A stretch of 32,490 nucleotides of DNA, from contig NJED01000001.1 in assembly GCA_002254745.1 (NCBI GenBank), forward strand, positions 1 to 32,490, read 5' to 3'. Made by a program: the position numbers and the translations under genes. How positions within the stretch are numbered: the first letter of the stretch is position 1; each line of letters opens with the position of its first letter. Of the stretch, positions 20,049-32,490 are shown piece after piece. The stretch comes from Desulfurococcales archaeon ex4484_217_1 (GTDB taxonomy: Archaea; Thermoproteota; Thermoprotei_A; EX4484-217-1). The notes under the pieces were generated by a model, which made no database searches, was not told the DNA's origin, and saw nothing but the letters and a program-made list of their open reading frames with translations.

Positions 20049-21932
20049 TTACCTATTTTCCACCTTAGTTATTATGTTTCGTGTCTCCATGTTTTCCGGT
20101 ATTATTTTTACCCATATTGGTCTAGGATCTCCTGTAATTCTGATTAATGCTTCTCCTGTTTTTAACCATGTCATTCTCTCTTTCTCTTCCTCATTAAGTT
20201 TCATGTACTTAGCTACAGCTTCTATATAGTCTTTGCTGTTAGAGCCAAATACTATGATTGTACCAGCATTATCAAGTACGTCTTTCGGGAAATCAGTAAT
20301 ATCCTGTGATGCAAGGGCTACGGCTAAGCCGTATCCTCTACCTTCTTTTACTAAGCTTCTAACTATTTTCGAACTTGACTTAGTGTCAGTTAATCTCCAA
20401 GCTTCATCTATGAGAACTAAGTGCCTAAGCTTATTTGTTGGCGTCAATGTTAGCATGTAATTGGTAAGTATTTGCAAAATTGCTAATGCATATACTTTTC
20501 TATATTCTTCAGGTAGCTTGTATAGGGCAAAAATTACAGGTTTCTTCACTATGGAGAATACGTTGTTGTAGTTACTACCTAAAAATACTTTACTATTTAA
20601 TTGTTCTATTTTCGTAAGTAGTGTGTAAAATTTTAGCTCAAGTTCAGGATTTGAAGATTTTTCTTCTTTAATTATACTTATTAGAGTTTCCAAGTTGGGA
20701 TGTTGAGTGCGTTCATACGATTTAAGTATCGACATGTAGAGTATATATTCTTCAGCAGGTTCTAAGTCTGTTAATGCCTTAATAAGGTCTACTAATTGTT
20801 TAGCTCTAAGTCTTGGACTTGTAAACCATGGCAACATTAAATTAACTGGTGTTTTCTCAGGGTCTACTATTGAAACGCCTATAGTTTTACTTAGCCCAAT
20901 AAATTCTCCTCTCAAATCCAGAACCCATATAGGTACATCGTATTGCCCAATAACCCTCTTAGCTATTGTGTATAGTAATGTTGTTTTACCTCTACCTGTA
21001 GGTCCAACAATAACCATGTGCTTAGTTAAGTATTTTTCGAAGTCGTAAAATACTAGCGTTCCATAGTCTATATCTTCACCTATAAATATTCCCCCACCTG
21101 AAATCTTTGGTCTTTTAACATACCCTATGGGTGTTAGGAAACCCAAGTTGGATTCGAGCACGGTTATAGGTTTACTTTCACCTAGAAGACCATGTGTTAT
21201 AGCTTCTAATACTTCCTCTTCAGATGCTCTCTTCAACTCTAGTCCTAAACTCGCTTTAAAAGTCGATGATAATGTTTCACCTTTCCTTTTTAGCTTCTCG
21301 TAGAGTCTTCTAACATTTTTGTCTTGCGCTGTGGCTACTAAATACATTTTCACATTGACTGGCGTTTCTCCTCTACTTATTCTATTAAATAATGTTTCAA
21401 GTTTCTGCAGTTTTCTCTGGACATAGGGGTTAGCAGGATCCGCAGAAAGCAACACTTTATAGTTAGTTATGGTGCGCTCAAGATTTCTAATGTACTTCCT
21501 CACATCTCCGCTCTTTTTAATTAAAAGTAGAGAGGTATTATCTTCAGATGCAACTATAAAGTTAGTGAAAGCTCTTATTTGCTGCAGTAAGAAGCTTTGG
21601 GATACATCGGCAAACGTATATGGTATTTCGCTTACCGCATATACTACTGCTCCTTTGTATACATCTTTGCTGGGTATAATCGCTATGTTCTCTTCAACAT
21701 GAAAATCGTTTATGTCTTTAATATTCCTTCCTCTAAATCTAATGCTTAGCAGTCTCCCAAATTTCCCTTTACCTATCATCATTAAAGATGCGGCAATAAT
21801 TGTTGGGAGCACCAGTAAGACTAGGTAATATGGATATTCGAGAAAGCGAATACCAGAAATGTATATGAAAACAGTTAGGCCTACTGTTATAAGCACATAT
21901 GGTATTACTTTATTACTTTCCACTAATCTCAC
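20049..21932 (-). CDS. membrane-anchored VirB4/HerA-type ATPase (CedB-like / conjugative TrbE-like)
   Basis: 627-aa ORF with two N-terminal hydrophobic helices. Walker A VIVGPTGRGKTTLL, VLDLRGEF strand, Walker B LVLIDEAWRL, then ALASQD. GTG start overlaps the preceding small ORF by 20 nt. Confidence 0.7.
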   Translation of the reverse strand: MRLVESNKVIPYVLITVGLTVFIYISGIRFLEYPYYLVLLVLPTIIAASLMMIGKGKFGRLLSIRFRGRNIKDINDFHVEENIAIIPSKDVYKGAVVYAVSEIPYTFADVSQSFLLQQIRAFTNFIVASEDNTSLLLIKKSGDVRKYIRNLERTITNYKVLLSADPANPYVQRKLQKLETLFNRISRGETPVNVKMYLVATAQDKNVRRLYEKLKRKGETLSSTFKASLGLELKRASEEEVLEAITHGLLGESKPITVLESNLGFLTPIGYVKRPKISGGGIFIGEDIDYGTLVFYDFEKYLTKHMVIVGPTGRGKTTLLYTIAKRVIGQYDVPIWVLDLRGEFIGLSKTIGVSIVDPEKTPVNLMLPWFTSPRLRAKQLVDLIKALTDLEPAEEYILYMSILKSYERTQHPNLETLISIIKEEKSSNPELELKFYTLLTKIEQLNSKVFLGSNYNNVFSIVKKPVIFALYKLPEEYRKVYALAILQILTNYMLTLTPTNKLRHLVLIDEAWRLTDTKSSSKIVRSLVKEGRGYGLAVALASQDITDFPKDVLDNAGTIIVFGSNSKDYIEAVAKYMKLNEEEKERMTWLKTGEALIRITGDPRPIWVKIIPENMETRNIITKVENR

Positions 21933-22114: not shown

Positions 22115-23578
22115 TCAAGTTTTTATAGGTAACCGCACTCTTCTACCACCAATAACGTATGCTAAAGAATAAGTTGACATTATGAGAATAGAAAGATAGG
22201 TTATTGGCAGCATTATCCATTCGAAAATAGCACTAGCTATGGTTCTACCTAAATCCTCTAAATTATTTATGTTTCCTGATAGAGATTCTAAGTAGCCCCT
22301 ACTGCTTATTTTTGGTTTCTTTATCTGCTGCTTAGGGTTAATGAATATTTTTATCTCATACAAGCCTTCCTCTATAGTGACGTTGTAAATGTAGAAGTTA
22401 ATTTGGCCCCACTTCCTCACCTCAGTAGGACTTTCTAACTGCACATTGTTAACCTTGATTTTGCTAACATTGTAGTCTTCATGTACAATTGTAGTCAATA
22501 TTGATGATTTACTTGCATTAAGCTTCAACGCTACCTCGTTCTCATTTTTACTAATTTTTAACAAGCTTATGGCTCCAGTATCGCTTAACTTAATGATGAA
22601 ATATTCATCTACGATAATAGTGTCTTTCATTCTCAGCTCGATAAAGTAGTCGGCGTTAGGGTCTTTGAAAGGATCATATATGAAGTCCCTTTGCGGATCT
22701 ATTATTTCTAATTCTGGAGATAGTTTTGTACCACAATAAACCACCTTTAGTTTTAACGGTATACTATATGGAAGGCCTCCACGCGGTCTACCGGCATCAA
22801 ACCAACCATTATCCAAGGTAATATATGATGCTGCAAAGACTTCTTCCCCCCCATGTCTCGCATACCATTTTGTAAGCGCTCCAACTATTGGATGTCCTTT
22901 TATATCAAGTATTTGTCCTTTAACAAAAGCTATTCCCCATTTTTCAATATTTATGCTGCCTATTCTCTCAATAACTTCACTGATGTTTTCCTCAGCACTT
23001 TCAACAACAAAGGCTTCAGCAAACGCAGGCAGTAACGGTAAGGCAAGAGAGAAAATTATCGACATGGCAATTAAAGATGCTCCCGCACCTCTTGTTACTC
23101 TGAAAGGTACGGAATATAGTAACACACCTATAACAAGTATTTTTGCGAAGAATTGTTGGAAAATGAGGCCTAGTATGAAGAGAAGCTCAAGAACAATTAG
23201 CGTATATGTTGCTAAACTTATTATAGGGCCAAGACCTGCCGTAGATAGTGCTTTCATGCCTGCACTAGACAGCATCGTAGAGAAGGTCATAAGAGTAGAA
23301 ATGAACGAACCCAAGATGGCAATTCTACCTGTAATCCATTCAAAATATAGTTGCCAATCTACATTCAATATAGAGCCAAGATAGTTCACCACTTCGATTA
23401 TGGAGGAAAACATAAAGATAAGAATAGATGCAGCAAGAGCGTCATAAATAAGCGTGGGAGCCCATTTCTTAATACCCCACCATGGTATAGGTAGAGCGTA
23501 AATAAGTACACCTAAGTAGTATGTAAGTATTGCCAACGAGTACGCTAGTATAAGAAACTGATCCATGATACTTCCCAT
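22115..23578 (-). CDS. polytopic membrane protein with large non-membrane domain (CedA/VirB6-like position)
   Basis: 487-aa ORF with about six N-terminal hydrophobic helices (residues ~10-200). A ~240-residue hydrophilic, beta-rich-looking region follows, then C-terminal hydrophobic helices. It starts 10 nt after the 81-aa ORF. Confidence 0.55.
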   Translation of the reverse strand: MGSIMDQFLILAYSLAILTYYLGVLIYALPIPWWGIKKWAPTLIYDALAASILIFMFSSIIEVVNYLGSILNVDWQLYFEWITGRIAILGSFISTLMTFSTMLSSAGMKALSTAGLGPIISLATYTLIVLELLFILGLIFQQFFAKILVIGVLLYSVPFRVTRGAGASLIAMSIIFSLALPLLPAFAEAFVVESAEENISEVIERIGSINIEKWGIAFVKGQILDIKGHPIVGALTKWYARHGGEEVFAASYITLDNGWFDAGRPRGGLPYSIPLKLKVVYCGTKLSPELEIIDPQRDFIYDPFKDPNADYFIELRMKDTIIVDEYFIIKLSDTGAISLLKISKNENEVALKLNASKSSILTTIVHEDYNVSKIKVNNVQLESPTEVRKWGQINFYIYNVTIEEGLYEIKIFINPKQQIKKPKISSRGYLESLSGNINNLEDLGRTIASAIFEWIMLPITYLSILIMSTYSLAYVIGGRRVRLPIKT

Positions 23579-25332: not shown

Positions 25333-27306
25333 GTGGTATTCAAAAAATATTGGCCCCTAACATCAAGAACATATTGGTGCCCTACGTGTAATGTCCCCCT
25401 TTTAAGTAGCCGATGTTATAAATGTGGTGGTGAGGGTTACGAGATAAAACTCAGAGAACCCGGAGATGTTAGAATAGCATTTGAACATGACATAAGTCAG
25501 ATTCTAAGCTCATTGAACATCAGAGAAAAATTAAAGACCAAGTTCTTCTATGAGAAAATAATCTTGCTTAATAAAACAACACACATAGATGACGCTAAGG
25601 AGGTAATAATTGACGGTAATATTTTCGGCATAATGTTATATAACCCATTTGAGAACAGATGGGAATTTAGGCCATCATATTATGGTGCTTTAAAACTAAT
25701 TGAGGAGAACAGCATTGAAACAGTAATTGTCCGCGGGAAAGTGAAACCAACACAAATAATAGCCTCGCCCACTCTCTCGGAAAAACGATATGTAGTACTA
25801 CTAAATGCCAGAGAAGAACCTATAGGGCTAGCTAAGGTAGTGTCTTATGGTAAAATGAAGGTAGTTAAAGTATATAGGCGGAAGTTCTACTTTGAAACAA
25901 GCGCAAGAAAAGCAACCATAGAGGATGTAATTAAGGCAAACGAGGAACGTCTAAATAGTATGGTGCAGGAGGCTACAAAGTTTCTTGAAAAAATACGCGC
26001 TAAGATTTCTAAAAGAATCTTGGTATCGTTTTCTGGGGGTAAGGACAGTTTAGTCTCACTACATTTAACTTTACAAAGTTTGGGGGATTGTCCACTTCTA
26101 TTTAACAACACGGGTATTGAACTCCCCGAAACCATAAGAACAGTGCATGAAGTAGCAGACCGTTATGGCTTAGACTTAGAAGTAGCTGATGCAGGAAACG
26201 CTTTTTGGGAGTCCGTAGGTTTCTATGGGCCGCCAGCAAGAGACTACAGATGGTGCTGTAAGGTAGCGAAATTAGTACCACTAGCCAGGAAAATGCTTAA
26301 AGACTATCCTAACGGAATACTCAACATAGTGGGTCAAAGAGCATACGAGTCTCTCGATAGGGCAAGAAGCCCAAGGATATGGAGGAATAAATGGATACCG
26401 ACAATAGTAAGTATATCTCCAATTCAGTATTGGAACCAATTAGCTATTTGGCTATATATCTTTAAGAATAAGCTCCAAGTAAATCCGCTATACTCCATGG
26501 GATTTGACAGAATAGGTTGCTACATGTGCCCAGCAAGTAGACTAGCAGAGTTTGAAGTAGTAAAGAAAACCCATCCCGCATTATGGGATAAATGGGAGTC
26601 TTTCCTATACAAGTGGGCAAAAAGAATTAATGCTCCAAAGGAGTGGGTAACTCTAGGTTTGTGGAGATGGCTTGGGCCAGCAACTCCTAAAAAACTCTTG
26701 GCCAGAAAACATAGGGAATTTATTGAGAAATGGCGTGAGCAATATAGAGCATGGCTTGACATGTACGTAGTTAAAACCAATATTGATAATGAAGAAGCCA
26801 GCATACTGTTTTCTAAGAGCATTGATTTGACCAAAGTGGAAAAGGCCTGTAGCATACTAGGAAATAATGTGGTAAGGAAAGAAGAAGTGTTAGTAGTAAA
26901 AAATGATAGTAGAGATGCGAAATTTACCTTCAACAAGAGAGGACTGTTGATAGTTAAAGCAAAGAATAATATAGTTGAGGAAACATTGGACGCCGTTAAG
27001 CTCACTTATAGAAGCATGTTCTGTACGAAATGTCTATCCTGTGTTACACTATGCCCCACTGGATCAATAAGTATATCTAAAGACTATGAAGTTATAGTTA
27101 ACTCCACAACATGTATTATGTGTAGGATATGTTTAGATATATGTCCAATAGCTGATGTCATGGTTGAGAAAATAGTAAATGCGTTAATCCTAAATAGGTA
27201 TGATGCGTGGAGAAGAGAAACTAGGAGGAAAAGAGAAGAAGTAGCTAAGTTTTTAGAAAAGCTATTAAGGGTAAGGTTAGCAGCTAAATGTCCCAATATT
27301 TCCTAG
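25333..27306 (+). CDS. PAPS-reductase-like PP-loop ATP pyrophosphatase with N-terminal Zn-ribbon/PUA-like region and C-terminal 2x[4Fe-4S] ferredoxin domain
   Basis: 657-aa ORF. Zn ribbon CPTCN...CYKCG; PUA-like stretch ending VVLLNAREEPIGLAKV; PP-loop SFSGGKDS; C-terminal CTKCLSCVTLCP and CIMCRICLDICP. GTG start immediately follows the acyltransferase stop. Confidence 0.8.
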   Translation: MVFKKYWPLTSRTYWCPTCNVPLLSSRCYKCGGEGYEIKLREPGDVRIAFEHDISQILSSLNIREKLKTKFFYEKIILLNKTTHIDDAKEVIIDGNIFGIMLYNPFENRWEFRPSYYGALKLIEENSIETVIVRGKVKPTQIIASPTLSEKRYVVLLNAREEPIGLAKVVSYGKMKVVKVYRRKFYFETSARKATIEDVIKANEERLNSMVQEATKFLEKIRAKISKRILVSFSGGKDSLVSLHLTLQSLGDCPLLFNNTGIELPETIRTVHEVADRYGLDLEVADAGNAFWESVGFYGPPARDYRWCCKVAKLVPLARKMLKDYPNGILNIVGQRAYESLDRARSPRIWRNKWIPTIVSISPIQYWNQLAIWLYIFKNKLQVNPLYSMGFDRIGCYMCPASRLAEFEVVKKTHPALWDKWESFLYKWAKRINAPKEWVTLGLWRWLGPATPKKLLARKHREFIEKWREQYRAWLDMYVVKTNIDNEEASILFSKSIDLTKVEKACSILGNNVVRKEEVLVVKNDSRDAKFTFNKRGLLIVKAKNNIVEETLDAVKLTYRSMFCTKCLSCVTLCPTGSISISKDYEVIVNSTTCIMCRICLDICPIADVMVEKIVNALILNRYDAWRRETRRKREEVAKFLEKLLRVRLAAKCPNIS

Positions 27307-30142
27307 TCCTTATAAAATCCATTTCAGCCTTAAGTAATGCTTTGTAAAAGTTTTCTTCACCATAAACTATCTCACCTAAAACCCTAGCAGCAGTTTTTGG
27401 ACCTACACCATACGTTGAAAGAGCTATTACTGCGTATTTTCCAAATCTTAGAACAAGGTCAGCTTTAAGTATCTCATCTTTCAAAACATTTTTCTCAAAA
27501 GAACTCAGTTTCAAGCCTCTCGCTCTTTTCCTAATAATATTCTCTGCTTCAACATCATTGGGTGAAAGCACGGTCAAGAACCCGGCTCCGCATTTTCTAC
27601 ATTGCAATCTTTCAGGAAGATCCCTTACTCTAACATTGTTAAACACGTAGCCGCACTTAACACATACTAGTTTAACTTTCTTGTTAAGTAATCTTTCTTT
27701 AAATGCCTTAACGATGGAGGGTATTTCGTGGGAGGCTTCAATAAACGTTATTTGAGCACTTAAAATTTTAGCTGTTAATGGCATTGGATCTTTTTCCTTA
27801 TAAACTAAGAGCTTTATTTTGCCATCTCTTAAATCTCTTAGCACCTTTAGTACGGAATCTAAATCAGTTCTAAACGTGATTATTTCATTAAGAGCTTCTA
27901 ACCCTATTAACGTATTCTCGTATGTTGGTAGAATTCTCAATACGGCACTATAAGAGACGCCAGGTTTTAAAGCGCCAAACCGCTTAGCCACATTGAATAA
28001 ATGCCATTTAAAAAGTTTAGTTCTTTTAAGTTCATCTGCTAGCATCGTTCTAAGCACGTGTTTAGTGGTGGAGCAAAGACTCTCCAGTATTTTAACTATG
28101 AAGTCAGCTTTTATGAATTTACTTGAAATGATAAATACTCTATAGGGATCGTTTTTGAGAATAAAGTTTAAACCTGTACTCCTCAGCATGTGGGAAATGA
28201 GAGTAGATAATGTGAACGTCCCTCTACTACCTAGATGTATGTGAATTATAGCTATTTTTCCCAGAGACTCTACAACTACGTGTCTATCTGAGGGAATAAA
28301 GCCTACTTTACTCTTTTGGTAACGTATTTTCTCTAATATAATGTTCTTTGCTTCTTCACTTAGGGGGTACATGTCTAAAGCGGAGAAATCGTTGTTAAAC
28401 ACTCTTCTCTTGAAGGCACCAACTTCTCTGGCAACTTTGAAATCAACCGGTATTAGTTCTCCTTCCCACCACGGTAAAATACCTAAGTCTTTAATAGTAG
28501 GTTTTACATAAACACATTCTTCGCCAATACCAATAACCTCCCATACCATACCCGATAAAACGAACTTAGAACCTACATCGCAGTTAGCAATTACAAATTT
28601 TTCATCAAGCATTCCAATAACTTTGCCTGTTACAATATCTTTAACTGCATATTGCCTCACATCAGGTATCATAGTGACTTCATAGTAGTATTTCCAGGAT
28701 TTAGCGGTTCTCCCTAGGAGCTCTCCACGGTACCTTATAACTCCTATTTCATTAAGAAATTTAATGAGCTCTTTAAATGTTTCATAGTCAAAATCTCTAT
28801 ATGGGTAAGCCTTGCTGATTATAGAGAAGGCCTTGTTTATATCTAAAACCTTATACTCTAGAGCTAAGCCTACAATTTGATGTGCTAAAACATCTAAAGA
28901 CCCAGCTGGCATAATAGGTTTTTCTAAAATACCGTTCAATGCTCTCCTAGCAATTACAGCGGATTCTAGAATATCATCAAGGTTATCTGTAGTGATTATT
29001 ATACCCTTAGAAGTTTCAAACTCTTTATGTCTGCTCCTACCTATTCTATGAATAAGCTTAGTAGCCTGTCTAGGAGAACCATATTGTATAACGAGATCCA
29101 CGAAACCTATATCAATTCCCAGTTCAAGCGATGATGTTGCAACTATAGTTTTCACAGACTTTTTCCTCAACATCTCTTCGGCTTTTAACCTTACTTCCCG
29201 AGATAAGCTTCCATGATGAACCAGGACATTGACGCCAAATATCTTTTTAAGGTTTAAACCTACAATTTCAGCAAGATCCCTAGTATTGGTGAAAACTATG
29301 GTTAAACCCGTTTTCCCTATAAATTCCTTTATCTTCCTAAGTCTTGCAGCGAATTCAGGTCGGATCAGATAAGCGTTCATTAAATAATCATCGTCTAATA
29401 TGGGTTTAGAATAGTCTACAATTATTGACATAGGCTTCTTTACATCTTCGATAGCAACTTTAACCTTCCTAAAACCTCCAAGGAATCTTCTGGCTAAATC
29501 AACATCTCCTATAGTGGCTGAAAGTCCTATTCTCTGAATTCTCTGATTAGATAGCACAGAAAGCCTCTCTAGCGCCACAGCGAGCGAAATCCCTCTCTTA
29601 CTACATATAAGCTCATGAAGCTCATCTATTACAACCCATTTAACGTTTCTAAGAAGCTCTCTTAAACGTGGGCCAACTAAGAGGAATTGAAAAGTTTCCG
29701 GAGTGGTTATGATGATATGTGGAGGATTTCTAACTATCTTTCTTCGCTCATTTTTCGGCGTGTCTCCGTGCCTTACTGAAACTTTTATATTTAAAGCTCT
29801 ACCTACTTTCCCCATTCTCCTCATAATATCTCTGTTTAGGGCTCGTAATGGTGTAATGTATATACAATAAACATTACTCATTTTCTCAAGACCTAAGTCT
29901 AGTATTTTAGAATATATTGGAAATAGCGAGGCTTCTGTTTTTCCAGATCCAGTAGCGCTAACTACTAATGTATGGTAGCCTTTAAGAATTAAAGGAATAG
30001 CCTTTCTTTGAATCCTAGTTGGTTCTACGTATCCGAACTTCTTAATTACGTTAATGAGTTTTCTGTTTAAACCTAAGTCTTCAAACTTTATGGTGCTCAT
30101 TGTGACCAAATTATTTACAACACTTTTGCCTCTATACTTCAA
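27284..30142 (-). CDS. lhr: Lhr-type large SF2 helicase (DEAD/DEAH box)
   Basis: 952-aa ORF. Motif I VSATGSGKTEA, Ia ITPLRALN, II DELH, III SATIG, VI HRIGRSRH. The long C-terminal extension carries a Zn ribbon (CVKCG...CRKCG). The likely true start is ATG 30100 (MSTIKFEDLGL); the ORF-track start at 30142 is TTG. Confidence 0.85.
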   Translation of the reverse strand: MKYRGKSVVNNLVTMSTIKFEDLGLNRKLINVIKKFGYVEPTRIQRKAIPLILKGYHTLVVSATGSGKTEASLFPIYSKILDLGLEKMSNVYCIYITPLRALNRDIMRRMGKVGRALNIKVSVRHGDTPKNERRKIVRNPPHIIITTPETFQFLLVGPRLRELLRNVKWVVIDELHELICSKRGISLAVALERLSVLSNQRIQRIGLSATIGDVDLARRFLGGFRKVKVAIEDVKKPMSIIVDYSKPILDDDYLMNAYLIRPEFAARLRKIKEFIGKTGLTIVFTNTRDLAEIVGLNLKKIFGVNVLVHHGSLSREVRLKAEEMLRKKSVKTIVATSSLELGIDIGFVDLVIQYGSPRQATKLIHRIGRSRHKEFETSKGIIITTDNLDDILESAVIARRALNGILEKPIMPAGSLDVLAHQIVGLALEYKVLDINKAFSIISKAYPYRDFDYETFKELIKFLNEIGVIRYRGELLGRTAKSWKYYYEVTMIPDVRQYAVKDIVTGKVIGMLDEKFVIANCDVGSKFVLSGMVWEVIGIGEECVYVKPTIKDLGILPWWEGELIPVDFKVAREVGAFKRRVFNNDFSALDMYPLSEEAKNIILEKIRYQKSKVGFIPSDRHVVVESLGKIAIIHIHLGSRGTFTLSTLISHMLRSTGLNFILKNDPYRVFIISSKFIKADFIVKILESLCSTTKHVLRTMLADELKRTKLFKWHLFNVAKRFGALKPGVSYSAVLRILPTYENTLIGLEALNEIITFRTDLDSVLKVLRDLRDGKIKLLVYKEKDPMPLTAKILSAQITFIEASHEIPSIVKAFKERLLNKKVKLVCVKCGYVFNNVRVRDLPERLQCRKCGAGFLTVLSPNDVEAENIIRKRARGLKLSSFEKNVLKDEILKADLVLRFGKYAVIALSTYGVGPKTAARVLGEIVYGEENFYKALLKAEMDFIRTRKYWDI

Positions 30143-30190
30143 GATAATAGGTGGTTAGGGTTATTTAATATTTTATTTTAAACTTTTATT

Positions 30191-32026
30191 GTGGGAAAGT
30201 ACGCCATGGACTTAGGGTTGAAATGTATCTTACTTACCGTAGTTCAGCTGGCTATAATACTCTACTTACTATCCGGTGTTTATGCAGCTTTTATAGCGAA
30301 CATATACATAGTGTGGGCTTTTATCTCTTTATCCTTAATAATTGCTTCCATACTTCTCGAGTCCCCAATAGCAGCATTAGTAGAAACATTTTCAGCCGTA
30401 CTATCTTTGCTTATTATAAAGAAATTACTAAACGTATGTTTAACGTTTATTCATGAGTATAGGTTAGCTGTAATAACGATAAATATAGATAATATAATCG
30501 GCAATCCAATAACCTACGCCATAGTGTTTTCAGCTTTTATAGCATCATATTATTCATGGAGCTTAATTCTTAAAAGAGGAGACGTAGTAGTTGATAGGTT
30601 AAAAAATATAGGAATGTCTTTAAGAAGCATTCAGAAAAACCTATTAGCTAAGTCTTCAGTTGTAATGTTAATTGCCTTTCTTATAACGTTAATTAAGCCT
30701 ATGGAGATATATGAGGAAGTAATGTACATTCTCGGAGTTGTTTTTTCTCTACTATTGCTTGTATTAAAAGGGTATAGAGCAAGTAAAAATTTATGTGCTG
30801 TAGCCTCATGGATTATCCTTCCCTATGCTATGTTTAAAGGTGTTGCACTTGAAAGCACCGTGGAAGAAGAAAAGGTAATAGAAGGTGTCAAAATAGGTAA
30901 AATAGTTTCTAGACTAGTGTATGGTAAACCTGCTAACGTGTGGTTGAAAGAGAAACTTCACTTACCCAAATCTCCAAGTTGGTATTGGAAAGTTGAATCA
31001 GGGACATATACTTACAACCCCTATTCTCAAATAAACTACCATATTTTAATAGCTGGAAGCAGTGGGACTGGAAAGTCGAGCCTAGCTAAAAAACTAATAA
31101 AAGAACTTTATTACCAATGGGCAATACCTTGCTTAGTTATAGATCCACACAATGAATATGTTAGAGTTATTGAGGAACTTGACGGCATAGTCGTAGATGC
31201 TTCCAAAATATCTATAAACCCCTTAGAACTTGATGAATGTTCTCCAAGAGAAAGAATAGTTCAAGTAGCTGATACTATACAACGCGTGTTTAGACTAGGT
31301 AACCTCCAAAGAGCCGTTCTCGAAGATCTCCTAGAAGAAGCTTACGCTGAGAAGGGAATAATAAACGATGATCCTGAAACATGGAAGCTAAAGCCACCAA
31401 CATTTCTGACATTGCTTAAGGTTATAGAGAAGAGAATAGAGTACGCTAGAAGCAGTGGTGAGAGATCAAGATATGAGGGGTTAAAGCCATACATTAGACT
31501 GTTATCAACATCGATATTTAGAGAGACCACGATAAGCTTTTCAGACATTCTTAGTAAACCTAGTGTAGTAGCTATGGCTAATTTGCCTGGTGACCATGTG
31601 AAAGCTATTTTATCAGAAACCCTTCTAAGAAAAATAGCCCATTACATGTATGTTTCAGGAGAAAGCATGGGATTGTCGCATTACATAGTTATTGATGAAG
31701 CTCATAGAATATGTAGAAGAAGCACAGAACCTTCTCTGGTAGCGAGACTAATGATGGAAAGTAGGAAGTACGGTATAGGTTTCATAATAATAACACAACA
31801 ACCATTAGACATAGATGAAGGCATTATAGCAAATAGTGCTTTAAAAATATCCTTTAAACTTTCTGAACCGGAAAACTTGGACTATATGGCTAAGACCTTA
31901 GCAGGGTATATTTCGGAAAATAGGCTGGAAATTTTTAAGGAAGCACTTTATTATATGCCTAGATTCTATGCTATAGTAAGAGATAGTAGACTAGCAGAAC
32001 CCGCCATAGTGAAAATAGAAATCTAA
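30191..32026 (+). CDS. polytopic-membrane-anchored HerA/VirB4/FtsK-superfamily ATPase
   Basis: 611-aa ORF with about six to seven hydrophobic helices in the first ~220 residues. Walker A ILIAGSSGTGKSSLA, VIDPHNEY strand, Walker B YIVIDEAHRI, then IIITQQP. GTG start (alternative ATG 30206). Confidence 0.7.
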   Translation: MGKYAMDLGLKCILLTVVQLAIILYLLSGVYAAFIANIYIVWAFISLSLIIASILLESPIAALVETFSAVLSLLIIKKLLNVCLTFIHEYRLAVITINIDNIIGNPITYAIVFSAFIASYYSWSLILKRGDVVVDRLKNIGMSLRSIQKNLLAKSSVVMLIAFLITLIKPMEIYEEVMYILGVVFSLLLLVLKGYRASKNLCAVASWIILPYAMFKGVALESTVEEEKVIEGVKIGKIVSRLVYGKPANVWLKEKLHLPKSPSWYWKVESGTYTYNPYSQINYHILIAGSSGTGKSSLAKKLIKELYYQWAIPCLVIDPHNEYVRVIEELDGIVVDASKISINPLELDECSPRERIVQVADTIQRVFRLGNLQRAVLEDLLEEAYAEKGIINDDPETWKLKPPTFLTLLKVIEKRIEYARSSGERSRYEGLKPYIRLLSTSIFRETTISFSDILSKPSVVAMANLPGDHVKAILSETLLRKIAHYMYVSGESMGLSHYIVIDEAHRICRRSTEPSLVARLMMESRKYGIGFIIITQQPLDIDEGIIANSALKISFKLSEPENLDYMAKTLAGYISENRLEIFKEALYYMPRFYAIVRDSRLAEPAIVKIEI

Positions 32027-32106
32027 CTTAGCAATAATACTTTTAAACTTCCTTAAAATACTAAATGTTGCAAATAAGCTTTCAAACAATAGCGCGGGAG
32101 GTTTAA

Positions 32107-32337
32107 ATGCTATTGACTTCTGAAACAGAGGAATTGTCTGAGGAAACAGAGAGAACACGTACTGAGATAACTGAAGAAGAATATGGAGAAGAATTTTCTA
32201 TTCAAGATCTAGAGTTTTTCATTGAAATAACAGAGTTTTGGGAGAACATTCTTGGAGGGAAAATGTCAATAAAAGAACTTATAAAGGCTAAGAAAGCTAA
32301 GGTCAAACCTAAACCTAAGAGAAGAAAGAGAAAGTAA
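32107..32337 (+). CDS. small bipartite acidic/basic protein (hypothetical)
   Basis: 76-aa ORF preceded by GGGAGGT 6 nt upstream of the ATG. The N-half is rich in Glu and Thr (SETEELSEETERTRTEITEEEYGEE). The C-terminal tail is KAKKAKVKPKPKRRKRK. Confidence 0.45.
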   Translation: MLLTSETEELSEETERTRTEITEEEYGEEFSIQDLEFFIEITEFWENILGGKMSIKELIKAKKAKVKPKPKRRKRK

Positions 32338-32340
32338 TGT

Positions 32341-32490
32341 TCAAATAGAGCTTTCAATGACATTAACTTCAAAACCTAAACTCTTTAGTGCCTCAACTAT
32401 ATCTTTTAGCTTAATATTTTTATCGAAAAATAAACCTATCTTCTTAGTGTTGCTCGTTCTTATGAGCTTAACCTTATCAAATAACACTCT
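32341..32490 (-). CDS. 3' end of an ORF running off the window (hypothetical)
   Basis: The reverse strand reads stop-free from the window edge: ...RVLFDKVKLIRTSNTKKIGLFFDKNIKLKDIVEALKSLGFEVNVIESSI, ending at TGA (32341..32343). It is too short to assign. Confidence 0.3.
   Translation of the reverse strand, partial: RVLFDKVKLIRTSNTKKIGLFFDKNIKLKDIVEALKSLGFEVNVIESSI

Follow-up and report, generated by a model that had tools for sequence, protein, structure and literature searches.

Background

CedB and CedD have each been shown to be essential for DNA import in Sulfolobales, and the ATPase that exports DNA from the donor cell is unknown (PMC11868833). CedD (SiRe_1715/Saci_0667), described in 2025, combines a HerA-like ATPase with a VirB4-like N-terminal domain and a transmembrane (TM) segment; DNA import requires it, it is a member of the UV-TFB3 iModulon, and in S. 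islandicus its gene lies two locus tags from tfb3 (SiRe_1715 versus SiRe_1717) (PMC11868833, PMC11823120). Here we analysed a stretch of 32,490 nucleotides (nt), hereafter the window, from Desulfurococcales archaeon ex4484_217_1 (GCA_002254745.1; NJED01000001.1, positions 1 to 32,490). The feature under study, at 30191-32337, comprises a gene for a membrane-anchored HerA-type ATPase of 611 amino acids (aa), divergent from a gene for an Lhr-type helicase and followed by a small open reading frame (ORF) of 76 aa.

Parts of this arrangement are already known from Sulfolobales. In a transposon sequencing (Tn-seq) study of S. islandicus M.16.4, the gene M164_1755, listed as arCOG00285, COG0433, 'HerA helicase / ATPase AAA', lies between rpo13 (M164_1754) and an Lhr-like helicase gene (M164_1756); these three genes are non-essential, and pcna1 (M164_1753) is essential (PMC6249222 supplement). 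Rpo13 (SSO0396/Saci_0816) is co-transcribed with a pcna gene (PMC2675907), and has a polarised charge, with a glutamate-rich N-tail, a helix-turn-helix core and a lysine-rich, DNA-binding C-tail (PMC3479171). The helicase aLhr1 (SacaLhr1) corresponds to Saci_0814 (PMC10003305). The S. islandicus Lhr-like gene (SiL_1597/Saci_0814) has a promoter with an aCcr1 motif and is down-regulated when aCcr1, a cell-cycle regulator of the ribbon-helix-helix type, is overexpressed (PMC9976892).

An earlier note on this DNA had proposed that the 611-aa ORF could be the true CedB orthologue, or that helicase, ATPase and small charged protein might form an uncharacterised DNA uptake/processing module or a membrane-associated defence module. 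Our analysis leads to a different view. We assign the 611-aa ORF with high confidence to a crenarchaeal family of vertical inheritance, arCOG00285 (Pfam DUF87), of which it is the local orthologue. Lhr (divergent), the ATPase, Rpo13 and PCNA constitute a conserved housekeeping cluster and not a three-gene module. Taken as a whole, the picture of a third HerA-clade membrane paralogue, neither CedB nor CedD, which lies in a housekeeping cluster with Rpo13 and would act as a translocase, is in our opinion likely to be correct.

Domains and structure of the ATPase

The ORF listing shows all three ORFs to be real, and only short ORFs of at most 77 aa overlap the ATPase and small-ORF genes. Scans for Rfam families and tRNAs gave none across the region. 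The Pfam model DUF87/HerA-central (PF01935) matched the 611-aa protein with 52.2 bits, compared with a gathering threshold of 23.2. The motifs GSSGTGKS, VIDPHNEY, VIDEAH and ITQQP are invariant or nearly so among homologues, and the same holds for K295 of Walker A, D502/E503 of Walker B, R525 and Q536 in the homologue alignments. Since these catalytic residues are conserved, the enzyme should be catalytically intact, and hence active.

In the AlphaFold2 model (mean predicted local distance difference test score, pLDDT, 85.3; predicted TM-score, pTM, 0.74), helices across residues 8-215 are followed by a β-hairpin (233-275) and a RecA-type ATPase (285-608). The membrane domain consists of about six TM helices and a membrane-proximal helix which bears a conserved SWIxLP motif, and in which W207 and P211 are nearly invariant in the homologue alignments. 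By hydropathy, residues 1-220 contain 6 to 7 hydrophobic segments, in line with the six to seven helices counted in the earlier note; the note was also right in describing a P-loop ATPase of the HerA/VirB4 type whose membrane anchor is far larger than that of the operon ATPase at 20049..21932. The basic loop at residues 127-148 and the basic N-terminus suggest, by the positive-inside rule, a six-helix topology with both N- and C-termini inside. The linker carries residues conserved in homologues (G236, and W264 and W266 of a WYW motif), and occupies the position at which HerA has an N-terminal barrel and CedB and CedD have a VirB4-like N-terminal domain.

A Foldseek search of the PDB with the motor returned the C-domain of DndH (7ES4; E 6e-15, target-normalised TM-score 0.75), S. 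solfataricus HerA (4D2I; E 7e-13, ranks 2-3) and the VirB4 C-domain (4AG5; target-normalised TM-score 0.74), together with many anti-phage HerA complexes. The membrane domain is without detectable relatives: it matched nothing meaningful in Pfam at E<=1, and modelled alone (AlphaFold2 pLDDT 71) it gave no fold match in the PDB, the best E being 4.4. A fused VirB6-like channel was considered for this domain but was not supported by comparison with the CedA-like protein, to which hhalign found no similarity (probability 1.7%).

The arCOG00285 family

A word-indexed search with the 611-aa protein found 32 relatives only, all from Thermoprotei, Desulfurococcales or Acidilobales metagenome-assembled genomes, and a repeat of this search from a 20-sequence alignment gave no relatives beyond these 32. 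An exhaustive profile search returned 650 cluster representatives at E<=1e-30, and the identity of homologues to the 611-aa protein spans from 97% down to 23%. Among the best 150 of these 650 representatives, 74 have the layout of an N-terminal multi-TM domain joined to the ATPase, defined as at least three N-terminal hydrophobic helices with Walker A placed at about residue 200-340. Among the branches listed of a neighbour-joining tree built from the ATPase domains, the 74 group together in the lower part with a Sulfolobales sub-clade, the CedB-like protein of the window falls outside the multi-TM group, and soluble relatives are separate. Gene calls truncated at the N-terminus seem to account for the few members of the multi-TM group that lack TM helices (337-382 aa). 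Among soluble proteins, those closest to the ATPase domain (P0060, P0063, P0066, P0070, P0080 and P0086; ~790-840 aa) carry an N-terminal extension of ~470-510 aa devoid of TM helices and form a clade of their own in this tree.

By BLASTP, the Acidianus hospitalis protein is 32% identical to the 611-aa protein (E 1e-62), and the CedB-like protein of the window is 23% identical over 345 aa (E 3e-21). The likeness in motif layout between the two ATPases of the window, pointed out earlier, thus reflects real paralogy. Named orthologues occur in Sulfolobus, Saccharolobus, Sulfurisphaera, Metallosphaera, Stygiolobus and Acidianus, and there is a Sulfuracidifex member too. Databases name members of the family 'ATP-binding protein', 'DUF87 domain-containing protein' or, by mislabelling, 'HerA', and PGAP gives the orthologues of S. 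acidocaldarius, S. islandicus and S. solfataricus only the name 'ATP-binding protein'.

Family members include AAY80182.1 of S. acidocaldarius, AAK40724.1 of S. solfataricus and, by gene position, M164_1755 of S. islandicus. The S. acidocaldarius DSM 639 homologue, of 539 aa (CP000077.1, 653,665-655,284), lies between an Lhr of 911 aa and an Rpo13 of 105 aa, followed by PCNA. From the published flanking tags we infer that it is Saci_0815 and that the S. solfataricus homologue is SSO0395. Sequence, architecture and position between Lhr and Rpo13 all agree with orthology to M164_1755, Saci_0815 and SSO0395. Since the S. acidocaldarius gene is flanked by Saci_0814 and Saci_0816, it is a third locus, separate from those of CedB (Saci_0748) and CedD (Saci_0667); as both Ced ATPases were defined in this species, we regard this as the decisive test.

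Public gene models of the S. acidocaldarius orthologue (L013 5001..6620) disagree, giving 446 aa (AAY80182.1), 539 aa or 566 aa, and several Metallosphaera and Acidianus entries are of 337-467 aa. The shorter models remove part or all of the membrane domain, as does the shortest S. acidocaldarius model in part, so that the membrane anchor is hidden; earlier surveys of membrane-bound HerA paralogues may have missed the family for this reason.

Comparison with CedB and CedD

To distinguish the 611-aa protein from CedB and CedD, we relied on NCBIfam models and on the identity of the S. acidocaldarius locus. The earlier note, which held that cedB is unlinked from cedA in S. acidocaldarius, had considered the 611-aa ORF as the true CedB orthologue, and the ORF does encode a membrane-bound HerA-clade ATPase at a distance of ~6.6 kb from a ced-like operon, both in the window and in the related loci L003, L005, L006 and L012. 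On the CedB model (NF041017), however, the protein scored 43.9 bits against a cut-off of 700, over the ATPase core only (model positions 268-521), whereas the operon ATPase near the CedA-like gene scored 260.2 bits. Furthermore, the S. acidocaldarius orthologue is separate from Saci_0748 and scored 40.5 bits on this model, and the AlphaFold2 model of the window protein contains no VirB4-like N-terminal domain between anchor and ATPase, only the β-hairpin. As far as the hidden Markov model (HMM) and synteny tests reach, the CedB identity is refuted, and we regard it as extremely improbable. It is also very unlikely that the protein is a divergent CedD, even though CedD is its best NCBIfam match (NF053655, 65.8 bits, model positions 219-476 only), and is likewise membrane-bound and reported in Desulfurococcales and Acidilobales (PMC11823120, PMC11868833). 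The score is far below the cut-off of 600, and the CedB-like protein of the window scored higher on the same model (78.5 bits), so the match amounts to generic similarity of the core. S. acidocaldarius, S. islandicus and S. solfataricus have both the orthologue and a published CedD gene, and Sulfolobales orthologues scored 40 to 51 bits on the CedD model (50.6 for S. acidocaldarius); moreover, CedD stands beside tfb3 in S. islandicus and not beside Lhr or Rpo13.

The ced genes were found within a few kb only in the sub-clade of the window (L003, L005, L006) and in L012, and are absent from the flanks of the other loci, so that proximity to ced is not a trait of the family. No type IV secretion system components (VirB6, VirB2, VirB3) adjoin the 611-aa ORF, whose immediate neighbours are Lhr and Rpo13; the remark that it has no pilin or VirB6 partners next to it therefore stands. 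The CedA-like protein, 462-489 aa long in the window, in L003 (1910..3361) and in L012 (1808..3196), aligns to the NCBIfam CedA model (259 positions) through only its first ~200 residues, and continues in a conserved C-terminal extension of ~290 aa to which no family is assigned. A ribbon-helix-helix protein of 62-82 aa (L003 3754..3966, L005 1641..1889, L006 1694..1942, L007 570..758) is encoded divergently beside cedA1/cedA in L003, L005 and L006, and away from any ced gene in L007; it may regulate the ced-like operon locally.

Assignment of the small ORF to Rpo13

On sequence and position, the 76-aa ORF is assigned to Rpo13. Alone, it scored 17.5 bits on PF12136, below the threshold of 25, but the small ORFs which follow the ATPase homologues in related contigs are clear Rpo13 matches: six of seven small-ORF orthologues matched PF12136 (best E 3.2e-10), and a profile of the seven orthologues, searched against the PDB, gave as its top five hits all five distinct Rpo13 chain sequences, from RNA polymerase structures of Sulfolobus and Saccharolobus (3HKZ_Y, 2WB1_J, 2Y0S_J, 2WAQ_Q and 36RP_Y; E 1.3e-7 to 1e-4). 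An Rpo13-seeded HMM was built from the small ORFs with strong PF12136 matches (L006, L007 and A. hospitalis, L010). Nine of ten small ORFs (those of the window and of nine loci, L013 left out) matched it, the window ORF with E 3.3e-18, and L011 was marginal; the small ORF of L013 carries a PF12136 match.

The window ORF shares with Rpo13 the helix-turn-helix core, the charged tails and the position near the PCNA gene, and differs in its length, 76 aa versus 104-105 aa, and in falling alone below the Pfam threshold. The earlier description of this ORF was accurate in that it has homologues, is preceded by a Shine-Dalgarno sequence (GGGAGGT, 4 nt ahead of the ATG) and combines an acidic N-half (isoelectric point, pI, 4.05) with a basic tail (pI 11.8). 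Its interpretation as an uncharacterised partner of the ATPase does not hold, as the charge polarity and DNA-binding basic tail of Rpo13 are already published (PMC3479171).

Gene order around the ATPase

The order ATPase, small acidic/basic ORF, PCNA was found in all ten related loci (Table 1), which span Sulfolobales and Desulfurococcales/Acidilobales-type genomes. In nine of these ten the ATPase has Lhr as its divergent neighbour, and in L012 a PAPS-reductase/ferredoxin gene takes its place (PAPS, 3'-phosphoadenosine-5'-phosphosulfate). The domains DEAD, Helicase_C, WH_Lhr and DEAD_assoc of the window helicase all score above their Pfam gathering thresholds, and it gave 459 bits on NCBIfam PRK13767. 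The neighbourhood of lhr, ATPase and small ORF is kept in related genomes, and neither of two findings that the earlier note had named as refuting its proposal (loss of this neighbourhood, a small ORF lacking homologues) was made, but this conservation reflects the housekeeping cluster and is no evidence for a three-part machine.

In Sulfolobales 2 to 8 nt separate the ATPase from Rpo13, which in turn adjoins or overlaps PCNA, so that the genes are packed as in an operon. The corresponding gap of the window and its relatives measures 41 to 86 nt, and an AT-rich TATA-like element directly follows the ATPase stop codon in the window, L003 and L005-L009.

Another ORF, of 125-129 aa on the minus strand, is located between Rpo13 and PCNA in all Desulfurococcales-type loci (L003 12148..12528, L005 10132..10521, L011 8361..8738, L012 8200..8577) and is absent from Sulfolobales loci; it had no Pfam match at E<0.01. 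On the other side, the window encodes at 25333..27306 (+) a 657-aa fusion of PAPS reductase and 4Fe-4S dicluster, convergent with Lhr, with 3' ends overlapping by 23 nt; a hexapeptide-repeat transferase gene lies ahead of it. Of these two, the PAPS-reductase gene is also found at the locus in L003, L005-L009 and L012 and the transferase gene in L003, L006, L007 and L009; both are absent in Sulfolobales.

Start codons and intergenic region

The true start of the ATPase is probably the ATG at 30206, which gives a protein of 606 aa, because the 606-aa homologues begin with MDLG in the alignment and because the TATA-like TTTTATTTTAAA is found at 30171..30182. Similarly, Lhr probably starts at the ATG at 30100, since the resulting length of 937 aa agrees with the L003 homologue. 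With both corrections the divergent spacer measures ~105 bp, compared with 48 bp between the ORFs as listed; the divergence from Lhr is as described in the earlier note, which had given about 50-90 bp for the shared region. As Lhr and ATPase share their upstream region, the ATPase gene might also be under cell-cycle control, by analogy with the aCcr1-dependent Lhr-like gene of S. islandicus.

Table 1. Positions of the features in the window, and related loci used for the comparison of gene order.
Feature	Position	Strand	Remarks
Membrane-anchored HerA-clade ATPase (arCOG00285/DUF87)	30191..32026	+	611 aa as listed, GTG start; Pfam DUF87, homologues, AlphaFold2, Foldseek
N-terminal polytopic membrane domain	30191..30850	+	aa 1 to ~220; hydropathy, AlphaFold2 helices 8-215
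β-hairpin linker	30863..31030	+	aa ~225-280; AlphaFold2 strands 233-245, 263-275
HerA/VirB4/DndH-like RecA-fold ATPase domain	31031..32026	+	conserved residues, Foldseek, PADLOC
Walker A GSSGTGKS	31055..31078	+	aa 289-296
Walker B IVIDEAH	31685..31705	+	conserved in homologues
Divergent intergenic region, probable Lhr start to probable ATPase start	30101..30205	.	same spacer in 87%-identity relative L003
TATA-like TTTTATTTTAAA	30171..30182		~29 nt upstream of ATG 30206; putative promoter element
Predicted RNA polymerase subunit Rpo13, 76 aa	32107..32337	+	acidic N-tail, helix-turn-helix core, basic C-tail
ATPase-Rpo13 spacer	32027..32106	+	TATA-like TTTTAAA 32041..32047; putative function
Shine-Dalgarno GGGAGGT	32096..32102	+	4 nt before Rpo13 ATG
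Lhr-type superfamily 2 (SF2) helicase, aLhr1 orthologue	27284..30142	-	952 aa listed; synteny with Saci_0814/SSO0394
CedB-like ATPase, comparison gene	20049..21932	-	NCBIfam CedB 260.2 bits, model positions 19-586 of 590
CedA-like protein near CedB-like ATPase	22115..23578	-	487 aa; NCBIfam CedA 158 bits, cut-off 330
Conserved ORF, C-terminal part, runs off window end	32341..32490	-	full length 125-129 aa in related loci
Synteny locus L003/L004 (counted once)			87% identity to window ATPase
Synteny locus L005			53% identity to window ATPase
Synteny locus L006			52% identity to window ATPase
Synteny locus L007			47% identity to window ATPase
Synteny locus L008			about 40% identity to window ATPase
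Synteny locus L009			about 46% (local) identity to window ATPase
Synteny locus L010, A. hospitalis			32% identity to window ATPase
Synteny locus L011			27% identity to window ATPase
Synteny locus L012			31% identity to window ATPase
Synteny locus L013, S. acidocaldarius			not compared directly with window ATPase

Discussion

The fold of the arCOG00285 family is most like that of CedB, CedD and VirB4-type motors and its layout is like that of FtsK, but the tests of membership placed it in none of these groups. CedB and CedD (Saci_0748, Saci_0667) belong to the same HerA clade of the FtsK-HerA superfamily and are both membrane-anchored, and arCOG00285 is found in Sulfolobales and Desulfurococcales/Acidilobales-type genomes, orders from which Ced has been reported. 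It differs from them in being a separate orthologous group, which coexists with both in Sulfolobales, in having about six TM helices instead of a small anchor and a β-hairpin instead of the VirB4-like N-terminal domain, and in adjoining Lhr, Rpo13 and PCNA rather than cedA or tfb3, outside the UV-TFB3 iModulon.

HerA, the partner of NurA in double-strand break repair, has the same ATPase fold, and members of the family carry the database labels 'HerA helicase' or COG0433. The 611-aa protein nevertheless scored only 43.4 and 37.2 bits on the HerA equivalog models NF040937 and NF040819 (cut-offs 800 and 970), is membrane-embedded, and has neither the HAS-barrel nor the helical-bundle architecture. 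No nurA, mre11 or rad50 neighbours were found in any ATPase locus, and herA is essential in S. islandicus whereas the arCOG00285 gene is not.

With FtsK/SpoIIIE the protein shares the superfamily and an analogous layout, in which an N-terminal polytopic membrane domain precedes a C-terminal hexameric P-loop pump. Its motor is of the HerA/VirB4 clade, however, with no long linker and no gamma domain, and FtsK_SpoIIIE (PF01580) gave no match at E<=0.01. The best structural matches are the C-domains of DndH and VirB4, the likeness being confined to the motor of ~330 aa. The DndH core model of PADLOC scored 98.9 bits, but DndH is a soluble protein of ~1,700 aa from a phosphorothioation-dependent restriction system, and VirB4 has, besides a large N-terminal domain, partners in type IV secretion; no such partners are present here. 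Matches to VirB4/TraC models were partial (26.7 to 50.4 bits, cut-offs >560).

Given the identity assignment, we tentatively favour a membrane-docked nucleic-acid translocase, at somewhat less than even odds. HerA, VirB4, DndH, CedB and CedD, the closest relatives, are ring-forming DNA motors, which makes a hexameric DNA translocase the most likely mode of action. The ATPase would form a hexameric ring, as other HerA-clade motors do, held to the cytoplasmic face of the membrane by ~36 TM helices, and the energy of ATP hydrolysis would serve to thread a polymer, for which DNA is the most plausible candidate, at or across the membrane. This role would be dispensable for growth in culture, and the motor may be functionally coupled to the Lhr helicase, which is transcribed divergently.

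Several observations weigh against this picture. The putative separation from CedB and CedD is drawn from family models and locus identity. Saci_0815 is absent from the uncharacterised UV-TFB3 iModulon genes listed in PMC11823120, which deprives the proposal of an expression link to DNA exchange. The linkage of Lhr, Rpo13 and PCNA may be an inherited gene order with no functional coupling, Lhr being missing from its position in L012, and the TATA-like box after the ATPase stop codon means that Rpo13 may have its own promoter in Desulfurococcales-type loci. In the literature searched we found no experiment on any family member and no functional study of arCOG00285, SSO0395 and Saci_0815 included, and we infer the polymer substrate.

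Motors of the HerA/FtsK superfamily also move proteins, as do EssC/EccC, and for the membrane domain there are no relatives to suggest a DNA channel. A motor which moves or remodels cargo other than DNA, such as proteins or a membrane complex, with a merely historical linkage to information-processing genes, could therefore be envisaged, but we consider this rather doubtful: the closest relatives in structure and sequence (HerA, VirB4, DndH, CedB and CedD) all act on DNA, as do the conserved neighbours Lhr and PCNA. The idea of an anti-virus defence module of the three genes draws on domain-level PADLOC matches, to the DndH ATPase core mentioned above, to HerA and, for Lhr, to BrxHI/SngC (291 bits). 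These matches cover only the generic helicase or ATPase cores of much larger defence proteins, and the small ORF of the supposed module is an RNA polymerase subunit by our assignment. The genes are apparently single-copy and stay at a fixed chromosomal position beside PCNA in every lineage examined, with Rpo13, riboflavin genes and tRNA synthetases at their side as well, a pattern opposite to that of a variable defence island; on account of this fixed housekeeping context we reject the defence reading, which is highly unlikely. An uncharacterised three-gene module for DNA uptake/processing is likewise not supported.

A further proposal joins Lhr and ATPase alone in a membrane-associated DNA unit, in which Lhr would unwind and the ATPase would pump DNA, as a donor-side exporter or as an FtsK-like clearance motor at division. 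To our knowledge, there is no membrane-bound DNA translocase with a reported link to cell division in crenarchaea. The divergent pairing is kept in nine of ten loci at 27-87% identity and across two or more orders, both genes are non-essential in S. islandicus, as expected of an accessory pathway, and the family is found only in lineages which also have Ced. Furthermore, the export ATPase of crenarchaeal DNA exchange is stated explicitly to be unknown, and the HerA-like TdtA drives DNA donation in Thermus (cited in PMC11868833). We nonetheless judge this proposal unlikely. The ATPase orthologue is not among the UV-TFB3 iModulon genes and is not reported among the ultraviolet (UV)- or 4-nitroquinoline 1-oxide (NQO)-induced genes shown; Lhr is absent from the divergent position in L012; and Rpo13 fits the same taxonomic range, which is thus not specific to Ced. 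The same low probability applies to its more speculative form, in which the arCOG00285 ATPase, possibly with aLhr1, would be the missing crenarchaeal DNA pump, either as the donor-side exporter of the Ups/Ced system or in FtsK-like clearance of the ESCRT division site, its six-helix domain forming or gating the conduit.

Conclusions

The family to which the 611-aa ORF belongs was already catalogued as arCOG00285, and the specific proposals made earlier for this locus (CedB, a novel partner protein, a defence or uptake module) are not supported. A misleading reading is thereby removed: the small acidic/basic protein is assigned as an RNA polymerase subunit, and the 611-aa gene is not that of CedB. 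Crenarchaea carry a third membrane-embedded motor of the HerA clade, which is conserved, apparently single-copy and non-essential. Being present in every genetically tractable Sulfolobales model, it is a directly testable candidate. The interest that remains lies in this third membrane-bound HerA paralogue at a time when the donor-side DNA-export ATPase is still sought (PMC11868833).

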